A DNA stretch of 38,084 nucleotides, taken from positions 1 to 38,084 of the forward strand of contig JACOXP010000009.1 of NCBI GenBank assembly GCA_016182295.1. Direction: 5' to 3'. The DNA is from Candidatus Harrisonbacteria bacterium (GTDB taxonomy: Bacteria > Patescibacteriota > Minisyncoccia > UBA6257 > WO2-44-18). Of the stretch, positions 1,419 to 38,084 are shown one piece after another. Numbering within the stretch: position 1 is the stretch's first letter; every line of letters begins with the position of its first letter. Both the position numbers and the translations under genes were made by a program. The notes beneath the pieces were generated by a model that was not told where the DNA came from, ran no database searches, and worked only from the letters and a program-made list of their open reading frames with translations.

Positions 1419-2783
1419 TCATAGCATATAAGGAACATCCGATCCGCGTGTGGGAAAAGCATAGAGAACGCGTTTTAAATCATCTGCTGAAATACCAAAC
1501 CTTATCGCAACGGCAAAAACATTAATGAGTTCATCCGAGTGCGGACCGAAAAGATGGGCGCCTAAAACTTTTCCGCTCCCTTCTTCAATAATAACTTTAT
1601 GCCCAGAGTAAGCTTCGTTGCGCAAACGCGCGCTAAACCACTGAGAAGTGTCGGCGTAATTTAGGCGGTATTTCAATCCGTTTTTCTTCGCTTCGTCCTC
1701 TCCCATGCCAACGGATGAAAGCGGAGGAACGGTAAAAACAACGCTGGCAAGAGCGGTGTAATCCGGCTTTTCACGATTACCCTCTAGAATATTTTTTGCG
1801 ATTATTGTGCCGTCATATCCGGCGCGCGGCGTAAGGGGCGCGGCAAGATATGCCACCGCGTCTCCTCCGGCATATACCGAGGGATTGCTTACGCTCTGAA
1901 GAAATTCGTTAACTTTGACCCCGCGCTTGTCATATTCAATTCCGGCCGCTTCAAGGTTGAGATCGCTAATTGCCGGAATGCGTCCTGCGCCATGAACAGC
2001 AATATCTGCGTCAAATGTATATGTTTTCCCGTTGCGTTCTCCGTTCACTCGCACGCCCTGGCCGATTTTTTCTATCTTTGTTACCGAAATTTCTAATTCA
2101 ATTCCAATGCCTAAAGCCCGGCTTCGTTTGAGTAAAATGTCTGTTAATTCCGGCTCGAATTGTTCAAGGGGCCGCTCCCCTCTATGTAGAATAGTAACTT
2201 TCGCTCCGGCGAGTGCGGCAACATGTGAAAATTCAAATGAAATATATCCGCCGCCGATAAAGATAATTCGTTTAGGAAGTTCCTTCAACTCAAGAAAATT
2301 GTCGCTTATCGTCAAATGCTCAAAACCTTCTATGGGTAGCCGCGACGGTTCAGCACCCGTTGCTATAACGATGCGTTCAGCCTCAAGCACGTTACCATCT
2401 ACGACAATCGTATTCGGGCCTTCAAATCTCGCGTGACCATGATACATATCAATGCCTTTCTTGGCGTAGCCCTCCTCCGTTTTTTTAGGCGTTGCATCGG
2501 TGTCTATCCGCTTGAAGCGCATGAGTGCCGGCCAGTCAATGCCGTGCTTTGCCGCGGACAGGCCATTTCCTTTCATCCGCCGAATAGCATCAACTGCCTC
2601 TGCCGCGCTTACCAGAATTTTTTTTGGATGACAGCCGCGAAGGGCGCAGGTCCCGCCGAACGGACGGGAATCAATAACCGCAACTGATTTTCCCGCCTTC
2701 TTCGCTTGCGCAGTCGGAGCCCCGGATGCCGAACCCGTTCCAATAGCTATAAGGTCGTATTTTTTTGCGGTGTTTTTTATCAT
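1419..2783 (-). CDS. Pyridine nucleotide-disulfide oxidoreductase, glutathione reductase-like
   Basis: GGTCALRGCHPKK redox CxxxxC, GGGYISFEF NAD(P)H motif, dimerisation domain ending AFPT. No C-terminal CC. Confidence 0.88.
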   Translation of the reverse strand: MIKNTAKKYDLIAIGTGSASGAPTAQAKKAGKSVAVIDSRPFGGTCALRGCHPKKILVSAAEAVDAIRRMKGNGLSAAKHGIDWPALMRFKRIDTDATPKKTEEGYAKKGIDMYHGHARFEGPNTIVVDGNVLEAERIVIATGAEPSRLPIEGFEHLTISDNFLELKELPKRIIFIGGGYISFEFSHVAALAGAKVTILHRGERPLEQFEPELTDILLKRSRALGIGIELEISVTKIEKIGQGVRVNGERNGKTYTFDADIAVHGAGRIPAISDLNLEAAGIEYDKRGVKVNEFLQSVSNPSVYAGGDAVAYLAAPLTPRAGYDGTIIAKNILEGNREKPDYTALASVVFTVPPLSSVGMGEDEAKKNGLKYRLNYADTSQWFSARLRNEAYSGHKVIIEEGSGKVLGAHLFGPHSDELINVFAVAIRFGISADDLKRVLYAFPTRGSDVPYML

Positions 2784-2787
2784 ACTT

Positions 2788-5166
2788 TTATACTTTATGC
2801 CCGCCGAATACGGCGCGGAGCGATGAAAGAATTTTTCCGGTAAACGAAGGGTGCTTTTTTGAACGCACTCGAAAGAGATACGAATCTTTTATAACCGGCG
2901 CGGGAATGCCTAATTCTTTAGCGGTTTTCACCGTCCACTCCCCTTCGCCAGTATGCGCTACGATCCCCGATGCTTTTTTTAAATCTTCTCCGTATTCTCT
3001 AAAGCCCTCTTCGAGCCACCCCGTCAGGCGCGAGGTAATAATGCTGTTCTGATTGTACACATTGGCGACATCTTTCAGAGAAAATTTAAACGGAGAATTT
3101 TTGAGTATCGTAAATCCTTCGGCGAGCGACTGCATCATCCCATACTCAATGCCATTGTGAACCATTTTTGCAAAATGTCCGGCACCGGATTTTCCCAAAT
3201 ATCCAGAAGGTGTATCGGACATCGCGTCGAAAATCGGCCTGCTTTTATCATATATCTCTTTTTCACCACCGGCCATGATGGCAAATTTTCCGAGTTGAAT
3301 AGAAACCGGCCCGCCAGAAACACCGACATCAAGAAAATGAATACCTTTGACTTTTAACTTCTTTTCGCGTCGAATCGAATCTTTGTAGAAAGAATTTCCT
3401 CCGTCAACGACGACATCTCCTTTGTCTAAGATATGCGCAAGACCTCCTGCTCCAAAAATCACTTCATCCACGGGCTTACCGGCCGGAACCATAAGCCATA
3501 CGGTGCGTGGCGTATGAAGTTTGTCCACGAAATCTTTCAGAGAATATGTGCCGACAACGCCTTCTTTTTCAAGCTCTCTAGTGGCTTCGGGCGCTCTGTT
3601 GAGCCCAACAACCTGCCATTTTTTTGCGGCTAAACGTCGAGCAAGATTCCCGCCCATTTTCCCTAAGCCAATAATTCCAATTTTACCGGCGAGGGCACCG
3701 GTTTTTATGTCTTCGCTGTCCGGCCGTTTTTGCACAAAAGACGGACATGGTGTCGTATCCGGTTTGTATTCTGCCAGAGGAATAAGATGACGCTTCCATT
3801 CATCCACGATCGAATCCGTGAATTTCCATGCCGCTTCGATTTCGTTTTGGGAAACAAAAGATGTCTGTTCGCCCATTATTGTCGCGTACAGCACTTTCGC
3901 ATACTCCGCCACATATTGAATTTTCACCTCTTTTTCGTAAAGAAAGAATGAAAATACGCGTTCTTCCAAAATACGATCAAAGCCGGGTTTTTTTGTCCAG
4001 AAATGGATAATGATTTCATCATTCGGTTCGAGACGGAACACTATTTGGTTTGGCCGATGCGGCCCGACTTCGCACAAAAGGCATGCTTTGGGGTGCTTTA
4101 ATGTAACGACAATCTCTTTGCGCGCTTCGGCTAGGCGTTTTCCAGCCTCAATAACAATCGGCACGCCGTTCCAACGCGGGTCGTCAAGTTCGGTTTTCAG
4201 AGCAAAGTATGTTTCCGTAACTGAATGCTCGCGCACGCCGTCCACTTCAAGATAGCCCTTGTATTGGGCACGAAAAGTGTTTTTTTGAATTGAATCTTTG
4301 GTCCACGAAAGTAGGGCGGTTAAGACACGGGCGCGATTCTCGCGGATCGTTTCGGCATTGCTGAGAGCAGGATGTTCCATAAGCAAGGTTGCGAGCATGG
4401 CAAGCAGGTGATTTTGGCCGACATCGCGCAACGCGCCGACCGCATCATAAAAACCACCGCGCCCTTCGACTCCTATGGATTCAAGAAGTCGAATATCTAT
4501 GCGCTCAATGGTTGTGTTGTCCCAGGTGTTTTCAAAAAGATTATTAGAGAAACGAAAATTTTCTATTCCCTGAATAATCTCTTTAAATAAATAATGATCT
4601 ATGCGGTAAAGCTGTTCCTCCTTAAAGTATGCCAAGAGAAGGGACTGCAAGTTTTGCGCGCTCATTAAATCCGTACCGAAGGGTTTTTCAATAAGCAGGC
4701 GGCTCCAGCCAAGTTTACCGCCACACGGCAAATTCAGCTTCACTCCCGCCAAATTTTCAAAAATCGGTTTGTAGGTTGCTGGGGGCGCGGCAAGATAGAA
4801 AAGTTTGTTTGCGCAGACGCCCCATGATTTTTCTGACGCCTCAATGGACTTAGCCAGCACGCGGAAGGCCGCGGCATCTTCAAACTTGCCTGCATGATAC
4901 GAGAAGAGATCCGCAAAGCGGGAAAGTTTTTCATCACGTATTTCCGAATTGCTTTTATTGCGGACTGCGGATTCTATAGACGATTTGAATTTGTATTCAG
5001 ATATATCGCCGCGCGAGAATCCGATAACAGAAAAACGGTCTCCTAGGAGATTCTGATCAAAGAGTCGCCAGAGCGACGGAATAATCTTTCGCGTTGCCAA
5101 ATCGCCGTTGATGCCAAAAACGACAAGAATAGTCGGTGTATTATTTTTTTGCGGTTTATCTTTCAT
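2788..5166 (-). CDS. zwf: Fused glucose-6-phosphate dehydrogenase / 6-phosphogluconate dehydrogenase (short Gnd type)
   Basis: The N-terminal ~480 aa carry FGINGDLA, IEKPFG, RIDHYL, RDVGQNHLL and AGKRL (G6PD). The C-terminal ~300 aa carry GLGKMG, DGGNS, VSGG and KMVHNGIEYG (6PGDH). One uninterrupted ORF. Confidence 0.9.
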   Translation of the reverse strand: MKDKPQKNNTPTILVVFGINGDLATRKIIPSLWRLFDQNLLGDRFSVIGFSRGDISEYKFKSSIESAVRNKSNSEIRDEKLSRFADLFSYHAGKFEDAAAFRVLAKSIEASEKSWGVCANKLFYLAAPPATYKPIFENLAGVKLNLPCGGKLGWSRLLIEKPFGTDLMSAQNLQSLLLAYFKEEQLYRIDHYLFKEIIQGIENFRFSNNLFENTWDNTTIERIDIRLLESIGVEGRGGFYDAVGALRDVGQNHLLAMLATLLMEHPALSNAETIRENRARVLTALLSWTKDSIQKNTFRAQYKGYLEVDGVREHSVTETYFALKTELDDPRWNGVPIVIEAGKRLAEARKEIVVTLKHPKACLLCEVGPHRPNQIVFRLEPNDEIIIHFWTKKPGFDRILEERVFSFFLYEKEVKIQYVAEYAKVLYATIMGEQTSFVSQNEIEAAWKFTDSIVDEWKRHLIPLAEYKPDTTPCPSFVQKRPDSEDIKTGALAGKIGIIGLGKMGGNLARRLAAKKWQVVGLNRAPEATRELEKEGVVGTYSLKDFVDKLHTPRTVWLMVPAGKPVDEVIFGAGGLAHILDKGDVVVDGGNSFYKDSIRREKKLKVKGIHFLDVGVSGGPVSIQLGKFAIMAGGEKEIYDKSRPIFDAMSDTPSGYLGKSGAGHFAKMVHNGIEYGMMQSLAEGFTILKNSPFKFSLKDVANVYNQNSIITSRLTGWLEEGFREYGEDLKKASGIVAHTGEGEWTVKTAKELGIPAPVIKDSYLFRVRSKKHPSFTGKILSSLRAVFGGHKV

Positions 5167-8076: not shown

Positions 8077-9703
8077 GTTTTTCCAAAAGTTTTTCCGTTT
8101 TCTCTTTAGGCGTCAAATTACAAGTGATTTTAATTATCGGCAAATTATTATTGACCGCCTGGATATTAAAATGAGAACGACGGATCATTTCGGAAATTTC
8201 ATTCAGCAATCCTGAACGATCTTGAACGACAAGTTTAATTTCAGTGGACTGCGGTTCTTTCTTGGCAAAGGTGGTCATCACGCGACGAAGCGCCGATTTA
8301 ATGTGATTTTTCGCGCTACCGGTACGGACGAAGTTCAGCCAGGATTCCGACGGATGTTTCGTTTTTTGAGTGATAATTTCTACGACATCTCCCGATTTCA
8401 ACGAATGACTGAGCGCGACGATTTTGCCGTTAACTTTAGCTCCCGAGCATTGATTGCCTATTTCGGTGTGAATTTGATAAGCGAAATCAACCGGTGTCGC
8501 GCCATCGGGCAAATCAATCACCTCCCCTTTCGGCGTAAGGGTTAAGATTCTGTCTTGGAAAAAATCTATCTTGAGCGAATTAAGAAAATCCTCCGGATTG
8601 GTAAAACTATTTTGCCATTGGCGAAGCTGTTGAATCCAGCCGAGTTCCTTTTTATCGGCAACGGCTGCCACCCGCTCCAAATATCCCTTGGTGTCTTTGG
8701 CTTGATGATAGGCGAAATGGGCGGCAATACCGTTTTCCGCTTCGTTGTGCATTACTTCCGTCTTGATCTGAATTTCGGTAATTTTGTTTTCCGGACCAAA
8801 AACGGTGGTGTGCAAACTGCGATAACCGTTGGCTTTCGGCAACGCGACATAATCTTTAAAGCGATGAGGCAACGGCGGCCACATTTTGTGAATAATTCCA
8901 AGCGCGGCGTAGCAATCTTCAACGCTGGGCACGATTATCCTTAACGCCACCAGATCATAAATGCTCTCGATATTCATATCGTAACGAAGCAGTTTTTTAT
9001 ACAAACTGGTGTAGCGCTTTGCCCGAGATTCGATTCTAGAAACGGTAATATCGTTTTTCTTGAATTCCGATTCAATCATCGGTTTAAGACGCTGGGCGTA
9101 TTTTTCACGCTCTTCAAATCTGACTTTAATATTTTCGATAAGCCATTTGTGCTCTTGCGGATAAAGATACGGAAAGGCAAGATCTTCCAACTCGCCGCTT
9201 AATTTCTGCATTCCCAACCGATAAGCGAGCGGCGCGTAAATTTCCATCGTTTCCAGCGCGATCCGTTTTTGTTTTTGGGAAGGCACGGCGTAAAGCGTCT
9301 TCATGTTGTGAAGACGATCGGCCAGTTTCACCAAAATCACGCGGACGTCCTGACTCAAATACAAAATAAATTTGCGAAGGTTTTCTACTTTTGCTTCGAT
9401 TCCTCGATAACGAACTTTGCTGATTTTGGTAACTCCATCGACAAGAAAGGTAACGTCTTCGCCGAATTGATTTTTTATTTCTTCCAAAGTATGGGGGGTG
9501 TCCTCGACAACATCATGAAGGAGGGCCGCGGCGATTGTCGCTTCATCCAGTCCCCACTCCGCCACTGATTCCGCGGCGGCGGCGCAATGGACGAAATAGG
9601 GATCTCCATTTTTCCTTTTCTGACCGACATGCGCCTGTTTGGAAAAATCATAGGCGCGTTGCACTAAATTGTTTTGTTTATAAATTTCTTGAAGTCTTGC
9701 CAT
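8030..9703 (-). CDS. Long RelA/SpoT homolog, bifunctional (p)ppGpp synthetase/hydrolase
   Basis: HD domain (ALLHDVVEDT, KLADRLHNM), synthetase domain (RAKR, DLVALRI, GYRSLHT, EIQI), TGS (TPVDFAY) and a short ACT-like tail. Start placed at the ATG of MARLQ. Confidence 0.93.
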   Translation of the reverse strand: MARLQEIYKQNNLVQRAYDFSKQAHVGQKRKNGDPYFVHCAAAAESVAEWGLDEATIAAALLHDVVEDTPHTLEEIKNQFGEDVTFLVDGVTKISKVRYRGIEAKVENLRKFILYLSQDVRVILVKLADRLHNMKTLYAVPSQKQKRIALETMEIYAPLAYRLGMQKLSGELEDLAFPYLYPQEHKWLIENIKVRFEEREKYAQRLKPMIESEFKKNDITVSRIESRAKRYTSLYKKLLRYDMNIESIYDLVALRIIVPSVEDCYAALGIIHKMWPPLPHRFKDYVALPKANGYRSLHTTVFGPENKITEIQIKTEVMHNEAENGIAAHFAYHQAKDTKGYLERVAAVADKKELGWIQQLRQWQNSFTNPEDFLNSLKIDFFQDRILTLTPKGEVIDLPDGATPVDFAYQIHTEIGNQCSGAKVNGKIVALSHSLKSGDVVEIITQKTKHPSESWLNFVRTGSAKNHIKSALRRVMTTFAKKEPQSTEIKLVVQDRSGLLNEISEMIRRSHFNIQAVNNNLPIIKITCNLTPKEKTEKLLEKLKKLKEVKEANYRLV

Positions 9704-10308: not shown

Positions 10309-10878
10309 ATGAACTTGACCACTAAAATTGAAAAAGCGATTAAGAAAGCGGCTGCGTTGCATACCGGACAGACACGACGATTTGATAATTTAACTCCCTA
10401 CATAACCCATCCCTTTTCCGTCGCGATTATCCTTTCAAAATACACCAACGATGAAAATATCGTCATCGCTGGCTTACTCCACGATACTTTGGAAGACACC
10501 AATTATAAACCGGAGGAAATGGCCGCGGATTTTGGCGCGGAGGTAAAAGATATCGTGCTTGGAGTCTCGGAGCCGCCGACAAAAGAAAAAGATAGCCGTA
10601 ACTGGGCAGAAAGAAAGGAAGCCTACCTAGATCAGTTAAGCAAAGCTCCGGAAGGAAGTTTGATGGTTTCAGCGGCGGATAAAATTCATAACCTCTCATC
10701 GTTGATTGAAGAATATGAAACTTATGGGCCAAAACTTTTAGAGAAATTTCATTCCTCTCCGGCTCAAAGACTGGGATTTGATAAAAAAGTTCTAAAAATT
10801 ATCCGGGAAAGATTAAACAATAAGATTGCGGAGGAATTGGCAACGGTTATTCAGAGGGCTGAGAATCTTTTTCTTTAG
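10309..10878 (+). CDS. HD-domain small alarmone hydrolase (Mesh1/SAH-like)
   Basis: H..Q.R....PYITHP, AGLLHDTLEDT, RK..Y and ADKIHNL; no synthetase domain. Confidence 0.85.
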   Translation: MNLTTKIEKAIKKAAALHTGQTRRFDNLTPYITHPFSVAIILSKYTNDENIVIAGLLHDTLEDTNYKPEEMAADFGAEVKDIVLGVSEPPTKEKDSRNWAERKEAYLDQLSKAPEGSLMVSAADKIHNLSSLIEEYETYGPKLLEKFHSSPAQRLGFDKKVLKIIRERLNNKIAEELATVIQRAENLFL

Positions 10879-34760: not shown

Positions 34761-35695
34761 TAAGATTCAAGCGTCGCCAAAATCTCTTCAGTGCGCTCGT
34801 AACCATGCTTAATCGATTTTAGAATATCGCCTTTTTCACCATATCCCAAACTCAAAGTATCGATATTCATAGATGAATCAGTCAGAACCAAACGCTTCTC
34901 CACTGGGCCGTCTTTGAATAGTTCCCAAATGCGGCGTAGAAACGGCGAATGATTTTCTTTCGCCCATTTTACGTCTTCTGGGAAAACTCGAAACTTACCG
35001 CCAAAATTCTCTTTTAAATTCGATTCAATTTGTCGGTCAGTCATGAAGGAATTTTTCTTTATAAGTCGCTGAACAGCGTTAAGTTTTGCGGGGTTTACGG
35101 TCTGTCTTGGCTGACCGGTTTCCACCAAAAAAATTGTATCCATATCAGACAGAGATCTCGCGGAAATGCCGCAGGGATCAGAATAAGTTTGGGCATGAAT
35201 CTCTTCGGGTGGGAAAATCCCAGAATAGCTGGCGGAGGCTTTAATAAACTGCCTCAATAATTTATGTTGGGCCGGATCATCTTTGAATTCATGATTGCCA
35301 ACTATCTCTATCTCCTCTGTGGTTTCGTTAAAAACAGCAATTTCAAGACTTATCGGAGAATTAATAATCTTGCTCATATTAAGATTATTAACCAACCGCC
35401 AAAGTCCCTTATCGCTACAAAACGCGTTATTTCCCCTGGCGGCGTGCCAAAGTTTTACAAAACCGCTGCCAGAAAAAACATATCTATAACCGATCTCGTC
35501 AATTTTCGACCAAAACATTTTCAAAGCATTGGATCCGGATTCGACGTAACCGGCTCCGTTGAACGCGCCGCCAGAGGCGCACAGAATTTTTTCGATTTTA
35601 ATGCCAACTTTGTCAATATATTCCAAAAAGCCCACTTGAATAGCGCATCTTAATCCTCCGCCCGGTAAAATCACGCCGACTCGACCGAGATTCAT
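34760..35695 (-). CDS. Patatin-like phospholipase family protein (divergent motifs)
   Basis: PGGGLRCAIQVG oxyanion motif, ASGG nucleophile elbow, ASAS..G.FPP and YSD. Confidence 0.75.
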   Translation of the reverse strand: MNLGRVGVILPGGGLRCAIQVGFLEYIDKVGIKIEKILCASGGAFNGAGYVESGSNALKMFWSKIDEIGYRYVFSGSGFVKLWHAARGNNAFCSDKGLWRLVNNLNMSKIINSPISLEIAVFNETTEEIEIVGNHEFKDDPAQHKLLRQFIKASASYSGIFPPEEIHAQTYSDPCGISARSLSDMDTIFLVETGQPRQTVNPAKLNAVQRLIKKNSFMTDRQIESNLKENFGGKFRVFPEDVKWAKENHSPFLRRIWELFKDGPVEKRLVLTDSSMNIDTLSLGYGEKGDILKSIKHGYERTEEILATLES

Positions 35696-35794
35696 TTGCC
35701 GACTCCTTTACATAATCTTATTTAAAAAATTTAAAACTGCCGAATCAATTATGGCATTTTTCCAACAAAGAGTCGATGGCGATCGTCAAGATAC

Positions 35795-35811
35795 AGAAAA
35801 TGTCATGGGAG
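35795..35811 (+). repeat. Cassette-boundary site A
   Basis: AGAAAATGTCATGGGAG, followed by promoter TTGACA(35821)-18-TACTCT. Confidence 0.7.
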
Positions 35812-35890
35812 TCAAAAAACTTGACAAGTAGCATACTGCTGTGCTACTCTGCAACCAGTTTCAATCAACTTATTTGAAAGGGGGTGTGGC

Positions 35891-36082
35891 GTGGAGTACG
35901 TTGAGGAATGCACCGTGACGTGTTGCGTCTGCGGCAAGCAGTTCACCGGCCAAAGGGTCGCCGACTCCAAGGAGGAGCTGGACAAGACCGGCTGGTACAA
36001 TGCCGTGGAGGAGACCCTACTTCTCGAGACGTGCCGTGAGTGTCTCGACAAGGAGAAGGCCAAGACCAGCGCAACGGCCTAG
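35891..36082 (+). CDS. Small CxxC...CxxC zinc-binding hypothetical protein
   Basis: 63 aa with CCVC and CREC, GC-rich codons, SD-like GGGGG and its own promoter. Confidence 0.7.
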   Translation: MEYVEECTVTCCVCGKQFTGQRVADSKEELDKTGWYNAVEETLLLETCRECLDKEKAKTSATA

Positions 36083-36088
36083 CCAAAC

Positions 36089-36523
36089 CTAGTGCTGAGC
36101 ATCACTCAAAACTGCTCTTTTTTCTTTGCCAAAATCCATTCTCATTCTTCTCTTCTTATACGAGCTGACTTCTTTTTTCAATTGTTGTCTTAGGCCGCTG
36201 AAACTTTTAGAGTTAGATAATAACTCAAGCGCTTGTTCGGCAGTTCGGATTGCTTCCAAATAATTTTTTTCTCCAGCTAAAGAAAATGATAAGTTAGACC
36301 AAGCTAAACCGAATCTCGGCTCCAACTTGATAGCCTTCTTATAATATCTAATCGCCTTTTGCTGATTACCCGCTGCTCGAAATACATTGCCAAGACTATT
36401 ATAGAGTTCTGGTTTATTTTTCGTACGTCTATAATATTTCTTAAAATATATCTCCGCGCTCTTAAAGTCTCCTTTGTGCAACATCTTTATCGCGGTTGAT
36501 TTGTAATTTTCGTTATTCCCCAT
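36089..36523 (-). CDS. Tetratricopeptide-repeat protein
   Basis: YNSLGNVF...A..YYKKAI.L.P....AWSNL TPR pattern; AT-rich. Start at 36523 or 36556. Confidence 0.8.
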   Translation of the reverse strand: MGNNENYKSTAIKMLHKGDFKSAEIYFKKYYRRTKNKPELYNSLGNVFRAAGNQQKAIRYYKKAIKLEPRFGLAWSNLSFSLAGEKNYLEAIRTAEQALELLSNSKSFSGLRQQLKKEVSSYKKRRMRMDFGKEKRAVLSDAQH

Positions 36524-36590
36524 GCTACCTATTACATTATAATAAAAAAATTTCATGCGGAACGAAAAATCAAAAATAATTTTTTCGCCA

Positions 36591-36621
36591 AGTCCGATTC
36601 TTGATGGGTCGGGCTTTTTTT
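36591..36621 (+). terminator. Rho-independent terminator preceding site B
   Basis: AGTCCGATTC-TTGAT-GGGTCGGGCT followed by a T run. Confidence 0.65.
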
Positions 36622-36644
36622 ATTCTCACCTCTCATAACACTTC
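36615..36644 (-). repeat. Cassette-boundary site B
   Basis: TTTTTTTATTCTCACCTCTCATAACACTTC, 28/30 identical to 37457-37486. Confidence 0.75.
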
Positions 36645-36842
36645 ATAAACCACTCGCCAGTCTCCAACGCGGAACTTAAAAAAGTTCTTCCACTTCCCGC
36701 GTAGAGGATCATGCTTAACTTGATCAAAGCTGTCTTTGAACCATTGAAGTTTTTCAAGAAGGCGGCTTTTGGCTGGTTCGCCGATGCGCTTCAAGTCCTG
36801 CTCTGCCACGTCAGTAACTTCGATTCGCCAATCTATCTCCAC
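36633..36842 (-). pseudogene. relE: RelE/ParE-family toxin, C-terminally truncated
   Basis: W.I..T..A..DL..I...L.G....FKFRVGDWRVVY pattern; it stops at 69 aa, inside site B. Confidence 0.75.
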
Positions 36843-36844
36843 AA

Positions 36845-37054
36845 TTAATGAACCTCGTATTGCTTCAAAACCTCGGTCAAACTTCTTGTTTTGTCAGCTT
36901 TTCTGGAGCGAATCGATTTGCGCAGTCGGGTTTCAAATTCGGGCCTTAATTCCAAACCAAAATCGGGGTCATTCAAAAATTCTCTTAAGACCTCAATGAC
37001 TTGCTTTTTGACCAAACTATTTAGCTTTGCTTCTTCTAAACTCGTCTTAGCCAT
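36845..37054 (-). CDS. Putative type II antitoxin
   Basis: 69 aa with DPDFGLELRPEF...L..S motif, 2 nt upstream of relE. Promoter TTGCAA-16-TATACT. Confidence 0.75.
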   Translation of the reverse strand: MAKTSLEEAKLNSLVKKQVIEVLREFLNDPDFGLELRPEFETRLRKSIRSRKADKTRSLTEVLKQYEVH

Positions 37055-37090
37055 GTTCTTAGTATATCACCTTGAAAAATTTTTGCAAAA

Positions 37091-37110
37091 TTATCTCCCG
37101 TGACCCCTCT
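37091..37110 (-). repeat. Cassette-boundary site C (degenerate)
   Basis: TTATCTCCCGTGACCCCTCT versus TTATCTCCCATGACACTTCT at 37930-37949 (17/20 identical). Confidence 0.6.
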
Positions 37111-37218
37111 TCGCTTTTCGAGCTTCGGACTGGCGCAGCGCTTCTACTACCTATTGACCGCGTCCTAAAGATTCTTTTAATCTTAACGTGGCACGTTGAA
37201 TTTCTTCAGAGGGAAGTC

Positions 37219-37449
37219 ATGAAAAAGTACAGAATTCTCAAGTCGGTAATACTAAGTTTTCTAACTCCGCAGGACCAAAGTGATGAAATCATCGAGCCGA
37301 AAGATGGAGTCATACTGGAAAGTGACGGCCGTACAATCTGGGCCATCAAAAATAGGAAACGGCACGAATCAATAACCGTAGCTCACGCTATCGAATATTG
37401 GCTTGATATCGGAGCAATTATAGAAATTTCATCGGAGGAAGGTCAATGA
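37219..37449 (+). CDS. Hypothetical protein
   Basis: 76 aa starting MKKYRI, SD-like GAGGGA, and a terminator overlapping the stop. Confidence 0.7.
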   Translation: MKKYRILKSVILSFLTPQDQSDEIIEPKDGVILESDGRTIWAIKNRKRHESITVAHAIEYWLDIGAIIEISSEEGQ

Positions 37450-37456
37450 GGCCTTC

Positions 37457-37487
37457 TTTTTTTATTCTCACCTCCCATGACACTTCT
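37457..37487 (-). repeat. Cassette-boundary site D
   Basis: TTTTTTTATTCTCACCTCCCATGACACTTCT, following the hairpin GAAGGTC-AATGA-GGCCTTC. Confidence 0.75.
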
Positions 37488-37570
37488 GTTTTTTTAATAA
37501 CCAATCGCAGGAATTCTCTTTATTTTAGGCCGTTTTTCAATCTACGATACTACCAGATTTGCCGAGACAT

Positions 37571-37587
37571 AGAAAATGTCATGGGGA
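37571..37587 (+). repeat. Cassette-boundary site E
   Basis: AGAAAATGTCATGGGGA; its upstream flank resembles that of site A. Confidence 0.7.
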
Positions 37588-37659
37588 CTTGTATTTTAAT
37601 TCCTTCTACTGTAATATTTCAATTAGTACGGTTCCTTTACTTTTCCGGGAGGTGTTTCA

Positions 37660-37878
37660 ATGATTAAACCCTTTGTTTTGTTATCTTTTTCTTGGCTTCT
37701 AACAAGTCTGGCGTTCATCGGTGTCGGCATTTATCGAACAATAGCGCTTGATACTTACGGATTCATAATATGGGGCCTTATCATGTTGGCCATGTATAAA
37801 GTATGGATCACACCAGATAATAAAAAATGGACTTACTGTGATTGTTGCACGTGCGAAAAGGATTGCTGTAAAAAGTAA
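37660..37878 (+). CDS. Small 2-TM protein with Cys-rich tail
   Basis: SD GGGAGGTG, two hydrophobic helices and C-terminus CDCCTCEKDCCKK. Confidence 0.75.
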   Translation: MIKPFVLLSFSWLLTSLAFIGVGIYRTIALDTYGFIIWGLIMLAMYKVWITPDNKKWTYCDCCTCEKDCCKK

Positions 37879-37902
37879 CCAATACCACCATTCTCCGCTA
37901 AC

Positions 37903-37924
37903 GGGCCGCCCTGCGGCCTTTTTC
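37903..37924 (+). terminator. Rho-independent terminator preceding site F
   Basis: GGCCGC-CCT-GCGGCC followed by TTTTT. Confidence 0.7.
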
Positions 37925-37929
37925 TTTAC

Positions 37930-37949
37930 TTATCTCCCATGACACTTCT
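37930..37949 (-). repeat. Cassette-boundary site F
   Basis: TTATCTCCCATGACACTTCT. Confidence 0.75.
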
Positions 37950-37972
37950 ATTACTTTTCCTATAAACTATTT

Positions 37973-38028
37973 TGTCAAGGAAATTTCATGGAAATTTCCT
38001 TGACATCTTCATCAATTTAGGCTATACT
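37973..38028 (+). promoter_or_regulatory. sigma70 promoter overlapped by a 15-bp perfect inverted repeat
   Basis: TGTCAAGGAAATTTC-ATG-GAAATTTCCTTGACA; TTGACA(38000)-17-TATACT(38023). Confidence 0.65.
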
Positions 38029-38062
38029 GTTCTCTAGAACATCGCTAGAAATGGAGGCTACT

Positions 38063-38084
38063 ATGGATCGTGCAGAAATGGGGG
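38063..38084 (+). CDS. Start of a CDS running off the window
   Basis: SD GGAGG, then ATG at 38063, downstream of a consensus promoter. Confidence 0.45.

Follow-up and report, generated by a model that had tools for sequence, protein, structure and literature searches.

In staphylococci, SCC elements (SCCmec and relatives) are located at the 3' end of rlmH/orfX, and in Streptococcus thermophilus the 3' end of fda is the place of CIME/ICE accretion. In integrons, the attC sites carry the core boxes R''/R' (RYYYAAC ... GTTRRRY), and in the Vibrio VCRs the sequence of the unit is highly similar within a lineage. Xer-dependent elements include IMEX at dif and the pdif modules of Acinetobacter plasmids; an Xer-type site is 28–31 bp long and has two inverted 11-bp arms around a 6–8 bp spacer. 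Here we describe an array of small gene cassettes whose joints point to another conserved gene, secA; the listings and abstract openings returned by our literature search made no mention of cassettes or of integration events at the end of secA.

The stretch of DNA that we analysed (the window, 38,084 nt) is an entire contig of a Candidatus Harrisonbacteria genome (G000, 632 kb), and the contig terminates within the array. Genomes of these bacteria are about 0.6 Mb in size and contain very few mobile elements or recombinases. The original prediction placed six repeated sites (A–F) in 2.2 kb and none elsewhere in the window, and this is what we found: all six are present (Table 1), and a profile built from 14 copies gives six matches in the window, all within 35774–37965. 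The core of each site is TGTCATGG. The exact 11-mer TGTCATGGGAG occurs three times in the window (35801+, 37472− and 37934−), and allowing up to 2 mismatches there are 13 matches, as compared to a mean of 4.63 in shuffled sequences (13 or more in 0 of 100 shuffles). The short core is uninformative by itself, since the count of a 12-mer with 1 mismatch in 60 relatives barely exceeds that of the reversed-pattern control. Genome-wide, all 14 profile matches with E < 0.01 fall in three contig-end stretches (copies beyond the window are found solely at the ends of contigs C11 and C17), so that the sites are clustered rather than scattered, as predicted; the dispersal over many unrelated intergenic regions expected of a REP-like repeat or a transcription-factor site was not observed. 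An Rfam search of 35600–38084 at a permissive E-value gave six weak matches, none of them near the gathering score. The identity of B and D at 28 of 30 positions was confirmed over the first 30 bases of a 40-nt register (counted by eye). Two details of the prediction did not hold: the proposed site length of ~17–30 bp is too short, as the actual extent is about 50–65 nt, and the proposed co-variation of the outer flanks (ACAGAA/TTCTGT and ATAGAA/TTCTAT) is seen in these two pairs only and follows no rule across the copies of relatives.

At their full extent the sites are decayed and diverged copies of the last ~50–65 bases of secA. The 3' end of secA encodes a SEC-C zinc-finger tail (..KKYKRCHG-stop), and the copied segment comprises this tail together with its stop codon and an A-rich, hairpin-containing stretch. 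In one relative (G262), the array opens with a site that is itself the coding end of an 852-aa SecA, and the DNA across the core encodes ..GSGKKYKRCHGA-stop; a ribosome-binding site and start codons are provided by the sequence past the core, and the cassettes that follow this fixed entry site are promoterless and share one orientation. Among 28 secA loci from relatives and metagenome contigs (those with at least 100 aa of secA), 22 have the C-terminus of SecA no more than 7 nt from a called core of like orientation; in the remaining six, 93 to 1155 nt separate it from the nearest core. Arrays of relatives thus begin at a core inside an intact secA tail, and the arrays of G000 contain decayed tails still reading GSGKKYKRCHGG-stop. 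We distinguished three kinds of left arm, all of which can be aligned to the secA tail, and, as in SCC and CIME elements, each joint of every site class repeats the target gene's 3' end. Because the site copies the 3' end of secA, we class the system with elements whose accretion point is a conserved gene's 3' end. The secA gene itself is missing from the G000 assembly; these repeats explain why assemblies break here and why secA and the middles of the arrays are missing from the bin. In viral contigs, the class 3 pattern gave 0 matches and the pattern of the SEC-C-tail coding sequence was found in 5 contigs; in the two of these five that we examined, the tails terminate real ORFs and no integrase lies beside them.

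Table 1. Features of the array in the window (positions of the window; cores of the sites are given with the feature).
Feature	Position	Strand	Evidence
Site A, secA-tail copy of 'class 3', core 35801–35811	35745..35840	+	Motif, profile, arm alignment
Outer end of site A, edge of the array beside the patatin promoter	~35745		Synteny with G010, G014 and G001
Zn-ribbon-like ORF, 63 aa, 60.4% G+C	35891..36082	+	Perfect −35 hexamer upstream, 35821–35826
TPR-repeat protein gene, 155 aa, 35.5% G+C	36089..36556	−	Pfam
Terminator-like end of the Zn-ribbon cassette	36091..36135	+	Run contigs, loose ends 36129–36141
Site B, core 36630–36640, plus ~80-nt hairpin segment	36546..36657	−	Motif, profile
Toxin–antitoxin pair	36633..37054	−	ORFs, Pfam; own promoter 37088–37061
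Site C, core 37095–37104	37071..37160	−	Motif, arm alignment
ORF, 76 aa, without family, followed by a terminator	37219..37449	+	
Composite D-E, D core 37472–37482 (−), E core 37577–37587 (+)	37460..37590	−	
ORF, 72 aa, hydrophobic segments and Cys-rich end, without family	37660..37878	+	
Site F, core 37934–37944, directly 3' of a terminator	37912..37965	−	Motif, profile, terminator scan
15-nt perfect palindrome overlapping a strong promoter (38000–38028), then a gene start	37973..38084	+	

The features in Table 1 support the predicted array of self-contained small cassettes joined by the repeated site. Sites B, D and F were predicted to follow terminators directly, and a consensus scan found a hairpin with a T run before each of them (36590–36616, 37434–37460 and 37903–37919, respectively). 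Of the sigma70 promoters predicted beside A, E and C, the one at C (minus strand) was the sole call of the consensus scan; the claim holds only partly for A and E, because the −35 hexamer after A is perfect while the −10 hexamer there matches at only 3 of 6 positions, and after E the −10 is good and the −35 weak. The distance from core to promoter varies (9 nt at A, 1–2 nt at E), and −35-like hexamers are seen within or beside several arms. As predicted, the cargo is mixed in composition, from the low G+C of the TPR gene to the high G+C of the Zn-ribbon ORF (45% for the window). Pfam backs the proposed identities of the TPR protein and of the toxin (36633–36842, ParE-type), and the other four small ORFs have no family, including the 69-aa ORF (36845–37054) upstream of the toxin. 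The match of the toxin spans positions 1–71 of the 89 of the profile, so the protein looks C-terminally truncated at site B, which overlaps the stop codon of the toxin gene. The ~80-nt hairpin segment at B recurs at C11:46940–47020, and site C is interrupted by a 36-nt insertion (37105–37140) just upstream of its core. E, the 72-aa ORF and F make up a unit with inverted tail copies at its two ends. At the contig end, a gene starting with the ATG at 38064 runs off the contig; the stretch containing this gene start also ends contig C11 and has a depth 4–5 times that of its neighbourhood, and the gene start did not turn up in 400 other genomes of the order.

Contigs from four runs of one study (the run evidence consists of contigs, and two of the four runs may be the source sample) branch at the cores. 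They place the Zn-ribbon cassette, whose depth is ~2x that of its surroundings, in a second context: one contig connects 36135 to 37467 (a joint that skips 1331 nt), and in others an inverted tail copy comes after the terminator-like end of this cassette. A further joint leads back from 37583 to 35814, and its sequence is unlike that of a fresh A-by-E recombinant. Neither a circular junction nor a read-level empty site was seen in this contig evidence.

Sites D and E form a unit of ~125 nt in which two secA-tail copies stand back to back with no cargo between them. This unit is kept as a whole, at 73–85% identity, in 9 other genomes from 7 families (401 genomes searched, E ≤ 1e-9), and a 26-nt degenerate pattern of its centre matches 68 metagenome contigs, which carry 162 sites. 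The original prediction considered D-E as an attC-sized imperfect hairpin lacking the integron core; the unit is indeed conserved and the core indeed missing, but a stable or covarying hairpin is not supported. As DNA, D-E folds with −8.9 kcal/mol (z = −0.71; 41 of 200 shuffles fold as well), the alignment folds with −1.55 kcal/mol and 2 of 18 pairs compensatory, and reliable pairing is limited to the outer ~9 bp. Among 81 pairs of neighbouring sites, 48 are direct and 33 inverted, counts that are biased because the metagenome loci were selected by the composite unit. The inverted pairs include, besides E-F, 18 named 'facing' pairs with cargo (258–1445 nt), and of 15 back-to-back pairs, 14 carry no cargo and show a constant spacing of about 103 nt. 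A switch of orientation within an array is always marked by such a back-to-back double tail, which might serve as a two-armed att site or as an insulator combining a terminator with an outward promoter.

Comparison with relatives shows the gain of whole arrays, one of the outcomes anticipated for a mobile system. Between hsp20 and the patatin gene, G000 carries an insertion of at least 4.4 kb, half of which is the array in the window; the two genes are adjacent (70–100 nt apart) in G010, G014 and G001. A second G000 array separates argS from the gene behind it, and the two lie close together in G014, G016 and G015. The array in the window thus differs in its location from those that start inside the intact target gene at the 22 secA loci mentioned above. 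We found no tail-like attB in the empty loci of relatives (three hsp20/patatin and five argS loci examined), so a pure attB-by-attP scheme fails to explain how the G000 arrays arrived. That these arrays lie behind hsp20 and argS, not secA, suggests that seeds can reach new intergenic sites by a further route.

The predicted coincidence of breakpoints with sites is supported by the ends of alignments between loci. In 61 inter-locus alignments, 43 of 198 internal ends lie within 10 nt of a core as compared to 0.5% for random points, although alignments tend to stop near sites anyway because the sites themselves are conserved; a set of 18 alignments at 78–97% identity has 65 ends, of which 29 are no more than 60 nt from a core. 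Left and right boundaries converge at about −10 to +10 of the core, at a breakpoint resolution of only about ±10–25 nt. At the joints, the left arm moves together with the cassette upstream, and the downstream cassette is accompanied by what follows the core. One cassette is 85% identical over 411 nt, from the core onward, between genomes of different families, and the secA sequence upstream of it does not align. As homology between loci breaks at cores, cassettes are exchangeable modules; they collect in arrays and pass horizontally between families of this small-genome order. Among 129 ORFs near sites, 13 encode NUDIX proteins, and HAD, GNAT and AbiEii are also present.

As predicted for the window, no recombinase was found in or beside the arrays. 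G000 has a single PF00589 gene (contig C1), which looks like XerC/D by its scores (242 bits to XerC and 121 bits to TIGR02249, the integron-integrase model with a cut-off of 265 bits). Array-bearing relatives have the same single Xer-like tyrosine recombinase gene, on contigs other than that of the array, and an IntI-type tyrosine integrase adjoining an array was found neither in G000 nor in these relatives. No recombinase or transposase family occurs in two or more of the 129 ORFs near sites. Serine recombinases are absent from G000, G003 and G262, and those of G360, G085 and G087 are on contigs other than that of the array. A phmmer search with Xer and IS30 proteins against 1960 ORF segments of the fetched loci returned only one IS30-family transposase, encoded in the G003 array next to a composite unit; its inverted repeats are unrelated to the site, and IS30 was rejected as the mover. 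Placement of the secA tail at dif or the replication terminus was ruled out by GC skew: values remain positive (0.03–0.27) across the 100 kb flanking the tail on either side in G022, and over the upstream 100 kb in G004. When the aligned sites were inspected, no 28–31 bp Xer-type layout with 11-bp arms and a 6–8 bp spacer was seen.

Our leading explanation, to which we give about an even chance, is that these are accretion arrays that arise by recombination between secA-tail copies at the core. Cassettes would be gained, lost and reshuffled through such recombination, with the crossover inside the core (about RTGTCATGG) and the enzyme supplied in trans instead of being encoded by the array. 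Candidates for this enzyme are the single Xer-like tyrosine recombinase of the genome and the recombinase of a helper element absent from these assemblies. Simple accretion with a directional recombinase does not predict the 33 inverted neighbours. More specifically, and only tentatively, a cassette-capture platform of its own kind may be widespread in small-genome bacteria of the candidate-phyla type, with the coding tail of secA as entry, the double tail as cassette site, seeding of new arrays behind other genes, and a recombinase outside the integron, SCC and IS families (Xer acting away from dif, or an unrecognised enzyme).

The original prediction also offered terminal inverted repeats of non-autonomous elements, a reading that fits E-F and the 18 other facing pairs and is at odds with the 48 direct pairs. 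Under this explanation, which we regard as unlikely, the cassettes, each with promoter, gene and terminator, would be bounded by inverted tail-like repeats and moved by a transposase encoded elsewhere, and the composite would be a junction of abutted ends of neighbouring or circularised elements, as its empty, fixed spacing might suggest. At A, the array edge falls on the outer end of the arm, both G000 arrays lie at loci that have no tail-like target in relatives, and an IS30-family transposase gene does sit inside the G003 array. Its inverted repeats are its own, however; G000 has merely a 40-aa remnant of an IS30-type transposase, no transposase family recurs near the sites, and no target-site duplication was noticed at array edges. 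At secA, cargo directly abuts the core in the intact gene and no element arm intervenes, and since most neighbouring pairs are direct as well, transposition cannot be the main route.

Recombination at the tails could also proceed with no dedicated enzyme, the tail copies serving as portable homology for RecA-type swaps after DNA uptake and unequal crossing-over resizing the arrays. Repeats of 50–130 nt that are 73–85% identical across families suffice for exchange between close copies, and the arrays without a linked recombinase, the limited resolution of the breakpoints and the non-core segments that arrays also have in common (the ~80-nt piece at B and in C11) agree with this. It leaves unexplained how tail copies were first gained on both sides of a cassette, how different left arms came to be joined to unrelated right sides exactly at the core, why the composite unit is fixed, and how arrays reached loci without any homology in relatives; we consider it decidedly unlikely.

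We disfavour, as very improbable, a static regulatory module, i.e. a duplicated terminator-promoter/operator or small RNA of an expanded gene cluster with no present mobility. The terminators directly before B, D and F, the −35-like hexamers in or beside several arms and the translation signals after the core in G262 would suit it, but cores lie at varying distances from promoters, the cargo genes have no relation to one another and are of mixed composition, cassettes are closer between families than the adjoining secA, the arrays are insertions relative to relatives, and no Rfam family reaches its gathering score while the support for structure is weak. A true integron, or an integrase-less attC cluster (CALIN) with divergent attC sites, is disfavoured most strongly and hardly credible: the array of small, mostly orphan and toxin–antitoxin cassettes, the attC-sized (~125 nt), imperfectly palindromic unit between them and the promoterless, co-oriented cassettes behind a fixed entry site in G262 recall it, but the sole tyrosine recombinase is far below the integron-integrase cut-off and XerC/D-like, array-bearing relatives carry the same single gene, the GTTRRRY/RYYYAAC boxes are missing at the ends of D-E and of nine aligned composites (read by eye), a stable or covarying hairpin is not supported, and many joints have a single tail copy.

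The arrays keep exchangeable accessory genes (NUDIX, HAD and GNAT enzymes, toxin–antitoxin pairs and orphans) that move between families. Should the recombination at the secA tail prove site-specific and independent of a linked integrase, this would add a new path of gene flow to a very large, little-understood part of bacterial diversity, and possibly offer a handle for genetic tools in organisms that have none.

Compared with known systems, the arrays resemble MITEs and other non-autonomous elements with terminal inverted repeats in that some cassettes (E-F) lie between inverted repeats and the copies break assemblies; unlike in MITEs, most neighbouring repeats are direct, the repeat comes from the end of a host gene, and neither a target-site duplication nor a cognate transposase was seen. 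With IMEX and pdif modules they share recombinase-less modules between short sites in alternating orientation and a host Xer as the only tyrosine recombinase present, whereas the secA tail is away from the terminus and inspection showed no 11-6-11 dif-like layout. Integrons, sedentary chromosomal integrons and CALINs likewise have small orphan or toxin–antitoxin cassettes, a fixed entry site and an attC-sized, imperfectly palindromic unit between cassettes that is similar within a lineage, but the secA-tail arrays are without IntI, attC core boxes or a supported hairpin, their entry site is inside the coding end of secA, and most cassettes in the window have their own promoter and terminator. 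As compared to SCC and CIME elements, the units are far smaller (0.3–1.4 kb), the repeats occur in both orientations, there is a fixed double-tail unit, arrays are also found away from the target gene, and no Ccr-type or integrase-bearing element was found in the 84 loci or the array-bearing genomes searched; what the arrays have in common with SCC and CIME elements is serial accretion at a conserved housekeeping gene's 3' end, the repetition of the end of that gene at every joint, and many units that have no recombinase of their own and would rely on one in trans.

The six repeat copies (sites A–F) were all located where the original prediction had placed them near the 3' end of the window, and 28 of 30 positions agree between B and D. 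The window spans all 38,084 bases of contig C15 in the Candidatus Harrisonbacteria assembly (G000; 632 kb, 19 contigs, estimated 91% complete). The exact 11-mer of the core, i.e., the short conserved motif of each site, occurs three times in the window, all within 35801–37944; allowing up to two mismatches gives 13 matches as compared to 4.63 expected, a number reached by 0 of 100 shuffles. Using a profile built from 14 copies, all 14 matches in G000 with E < 0.01 are confined to three contig-end stretches rather than scattered (see table), and a weak additional copy is found in the first 170 bases of contig C11. The 3' end of C15 is the reverse complement of the 5' end of C11, and the 3' end of C11 that of the 5' end of C17; since the contigs end in shared array sequence, the arrays are the cause of the assembly breaks. 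Terminator-like hairpins were called by scan before B, D and F, as had been proposed, while among the promoters proposed beside A, E and C only the one at C was called (A has a perfect -35 and a weak -10, E a weak -35 and a good -10).

Searched by BLAST in 401 genomes of the order, the stretch from D to E has matches in nine genomes of seven families (E <= 1e-9; 73–85% identity over 66–137 nt), and further profile matches at these loci form arrays. In genome G262, the first of six array sites is the end of an 852-aa SecA, and the sequence spanning the core codes for the final residues of its SEC-C zinc-finger tail (..GSGKKYKRCHGA-stop). Alignment of all copies gives three kinds of left arm (the stretch before the core): a true or decayed secA tail, an arm resembling the tail minus six bases, and an arm found in opposite orientation only (sites A and E in the window), in which K-Y-R-K-C-H-G can still be read. 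3' of the core, most copies retain a further codon and then a stop codon in a constant position, followed by an A-rich run and a hairpin. Because all three arm kinds align to the tail and these features are kept after the core, the repeat is a copy, 50–65 nt long, of the secA 3' end.

In many genomes, the secA stop codon is where an array begins. Of 84 stretches examined (12 from relatives, 68 metagenome contigs and four from G000, some loci being the same contig twice), 28 cover 100 aa of secA or more. In 22 of these, a called core of matching orientation is no more than 7 nt from the SecA C-terminus; for the other six, the distance to the nearest core is 93–1155 nt. Although secA is essential, tblastn found no copy in the 19 G000 contigs, so a piece of this genome is missing; its secA is probably carried by a contig left out of the bin and flanked by another array. 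In another genome (G085), a gene for an NAD-dependent epimerase has an in-frame SEC-C motif at its end (Pfam E = 5e-8), a tail copy that now forms the C-terminus of an unrelated protein.

Coordinates of features in G000 contigs, sequencing-run contigs and loci of relatives
Feature	Sequence	Position	Remark
Site cluster 1	C15	last 2.3 kb	profile matches
Site cluster 2	C11	last 1.7 kb	profile matches
Site cluster 3	C17	first 1.2 kb	profile matches
ParE-type toxin	C15	36633-36842	ends where site B begins
Shared end stretch	C15	37973-38084	recurs at C11 1-124
Gene running off contig	C15	starts 38064	
36-nt insertion, site C	C15	37105-37140	just upstream of core
Near-identical insertion	C11	~46010-46045	same point of a site
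Near-identical insertion	L038 (G008)	~1300-1345	same point of a site
Related piece, inverted	L037 (G003)	9071-9107, 10642-10680	centre of two composite units
hsp20	C11	45126-45605	
Patatin gene	C15	35695-34760	
Right edge of hsp20/patatin insertion	C15	~35745	outer end of site A's arm
Gene near argS in relatives	C11	~500-1200	
Epimerase gene with SEC-C end	L036 (G085)	2244-3185	
IS30-family remnant	C5	3081-3200	40 aa
Loose ends of run contigs	C15	37472/37473, 37487, 37583, 37947, 36643, 37089	branch at sites
Skipping joint	X2 contig	36135 to 37467	1331 bases skipped
Back-joint	X1 and X2 contigs	37583 to 35814	

Gene order in relatives shows the G000 arrays to be insertions at two loci other than secA. 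In three genomes of the same family (G010, G014 and G001), hsp20 is followed after 70–100 nt by a patatin gene and then by recO; given this adjacency, the C11 3' array and the window array are two halves of one insertion (at least 4.4 kb, not counting the unassembled middle), and the recO-side comparison gives a gain of the array in G000. The second array separates argS (on C17) from a C11 gene that lies within ~1 kb of it in G014, G016 and G015. The argS–hsp20 distance in G001 is ~45 kb on one contig, in agreement with the 47.7-kb C11, and this synteny suggests the order reverse(C17), array 2, C11, array 1, reverse(C15), in which both arrays would share the unassembled middle in the same orientation. 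No tail-like sequence was found by profile at the empty sites (three hsp20/patatin loci and five argS loci); a short tail stub directly 3' of the argS stop is found in G000 only. Besides its array at secA, G003 has a second one behind an nrnA-like gene.

According to Pfam, the window array carries a TPR protein, a ParE-type toxin together with the gene product encoded upstream as its partner, and three ORFs that match no family, and the cargo is compositionally mixed as predicted (G+C from 35.5% to 60.4% across the array's ORFs). The toxin matches profile positions 1–71 of 89 and may have been truncated by recombination at site B. Its stop codon is inside site B, and the C11 array holds a full-length relative (83 aa). 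Both array ends carry the shared end stretch, and in the sequencing runs the depth over the final 70 window bases is 4–5 times the local value. In this stretch, a 15-nt perfect palindrome overlaps a strong promoter upstream of the gene running off the contig; a search of 400 other genomes of the order did not recover the start of this gene, whose product could bear on the mechanism. Site C is split by a hairpin-prone 36-nt insertion, which resembles a very small mobile insert in its own right.

In an all-against-all BLASTN comparison of the loci (61 alignments, each 150 nt or longer with 80% identity or more; 198 internal ends), cassettes are common to different families, with breaks at the core. 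Internal ends fall within 10 nt of a core in 43 of 198 cases (22%, as compared to 0.5% of random points) and within 50 nt in 83 (42% vs 9.6%), figures that, like those below, overstate the precision somewhat as conserved sites themselves tend to end alignments. In a subset of 18 alignments (78–97% identity, at least 200 nt), 29 of 65 ends are within 60 nt of a core; downstream-running ones mostly start at -23 to -5 and upstream-running ones mostly stop at -8 to +10, so the switch lies inside the core zone, at a resolution coarser than one nucleotide. G075 and G087 (different families) share one cassette immediately 3' of secA with 85% identity over 411 nt, and this alignment begins at the core without continuing into secA; a second shared cassette aligns over 646 nt (82.5%), beginning 23 nt ahead of one core and ending 3 nt past the following one. 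We infer that cassettes are gained, lost and reshuffled by recombination within the core between tail copies, which would be catalysed in trans.

The composite unit, i.e., two tail copies back to back with cores outermost as in D–E, aligns over ~125 nt in nine copies from eight genomes (74% mean column identity). A 26-nt degenerate pattern from its centre matches 68 metagenome contigs, on which the profile finds 162 sites. As the attC-sized hairpin proposed for D–E, the unit is unconvincing: the window copy folds as DNA at -8.9 kcal/mol (z = -0.71), the alignment folds at -1.55 kcal/mol with compensatory change in 2 of 18 pairs, and no Rfam family reaches threshold. Among neighbouring pairs at most 2.5 kb apart (60 non-duplicate loci after dropping 16 duplicates; 141 sites with E <= 0.05), 48 are direct (median spacing 483 nt), 18 are facing, always with cargo (258–1445 nt), and 15 are back to back, 14 of these being the cargo-less unit of ~103 nt, a share inflated by the choice of metagenome loci via this unit. 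A switch of array direction in one sense is always the fixed composite, and in the other always holds a gene, as in E–F. An accretion scheme does not account for copies in inverted orientation, for the fixed double tail or for arrays at places that lack a target; these features keep a transposon-like route in play, although we consider it unlikely.

No recombinase was found to be linked to the arrays, as the original prediction had it for the window. G000 encodes one tyrosine recombinase, on contig C1, which is XerC/D-like (242 bits vs XerC; 121 bits vs the integron-integrase model, cut-off 265), and no serine recombinase. A PF00589 match is found in 378 of 401 genomes of the order, nearly all with exactly one; the ten array-bearing relatives have one such gene each (two fragments in G262), on contigs other than the arrays where checked. 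Serine recombinases are absent from G003 and G262, and those in G360, G085 and G087 are on contigs other than the arrays. In the metagenome loci, 129 ORFs (150 aa or longer, no more than 4 kb from a site) match 142 families, and the 25 commonest of these include no recombinase or transposase family with two or more ORFs. phmmer searches of all loci (1960 ORF segments) with the Xer and IS30 proteins as queries found one IS30 only, in the G003 array; it has its own, unrelated inverted repeats and was rejected as the mover. The remnant on C5 is 85% identical to the C-terminus of this transposase. Genes for NUDIX hydrolases make up the largest share of the cargo (13 of the 129 ORFs, L057–L124; 3 of 56 ORFs in the first locus set), and in G262 the start codon of one is the ATG inside the core itself. 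Two narrow-pattern viral scans found no tail copies beside integrases. The secA tail was also rejected as dif, as GC skew keeps its sign 100 kb either side in G022 and 100 kb upstream in G004.

The window array is contained in four DNA runs from a single groundwater study, two of them possibly the source of the assembly, and was compared with these at the contig level. The Zn-ribbon cassette has ~2x the depth of its surroundings, the skipping contig has a depth of 8.4 vs ~47, and the run contigs describe a second copy of this cassette set between composite-type sites. The back-joint gives no evidence for an excised circle: its letters differ from those of a fresh A-by-E product, so it is a paralogous or strain-level arrangement. 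Plain homologous exchange between copies we regard as improbable.

Two kinds of known systems compare with these arrays. An integron array looks alike, but secA-tail arrays show no IntI, no attC boxes and no supported hairpin. The proposed scheme works in the manner of SCC and CIME elements, which accrete where a conserved gene ends (3'), but no Ccr or integrase was found. In the texts that a full-text literature search could reach, no description of the secA-tail phenomenon was found. New here are the conserved double-tail unit with its orientation rule, two non-secA insertions with empty sites in relatives, an order-wide recombinase count, the exclusion of dif and the lack of support for a hairpin.
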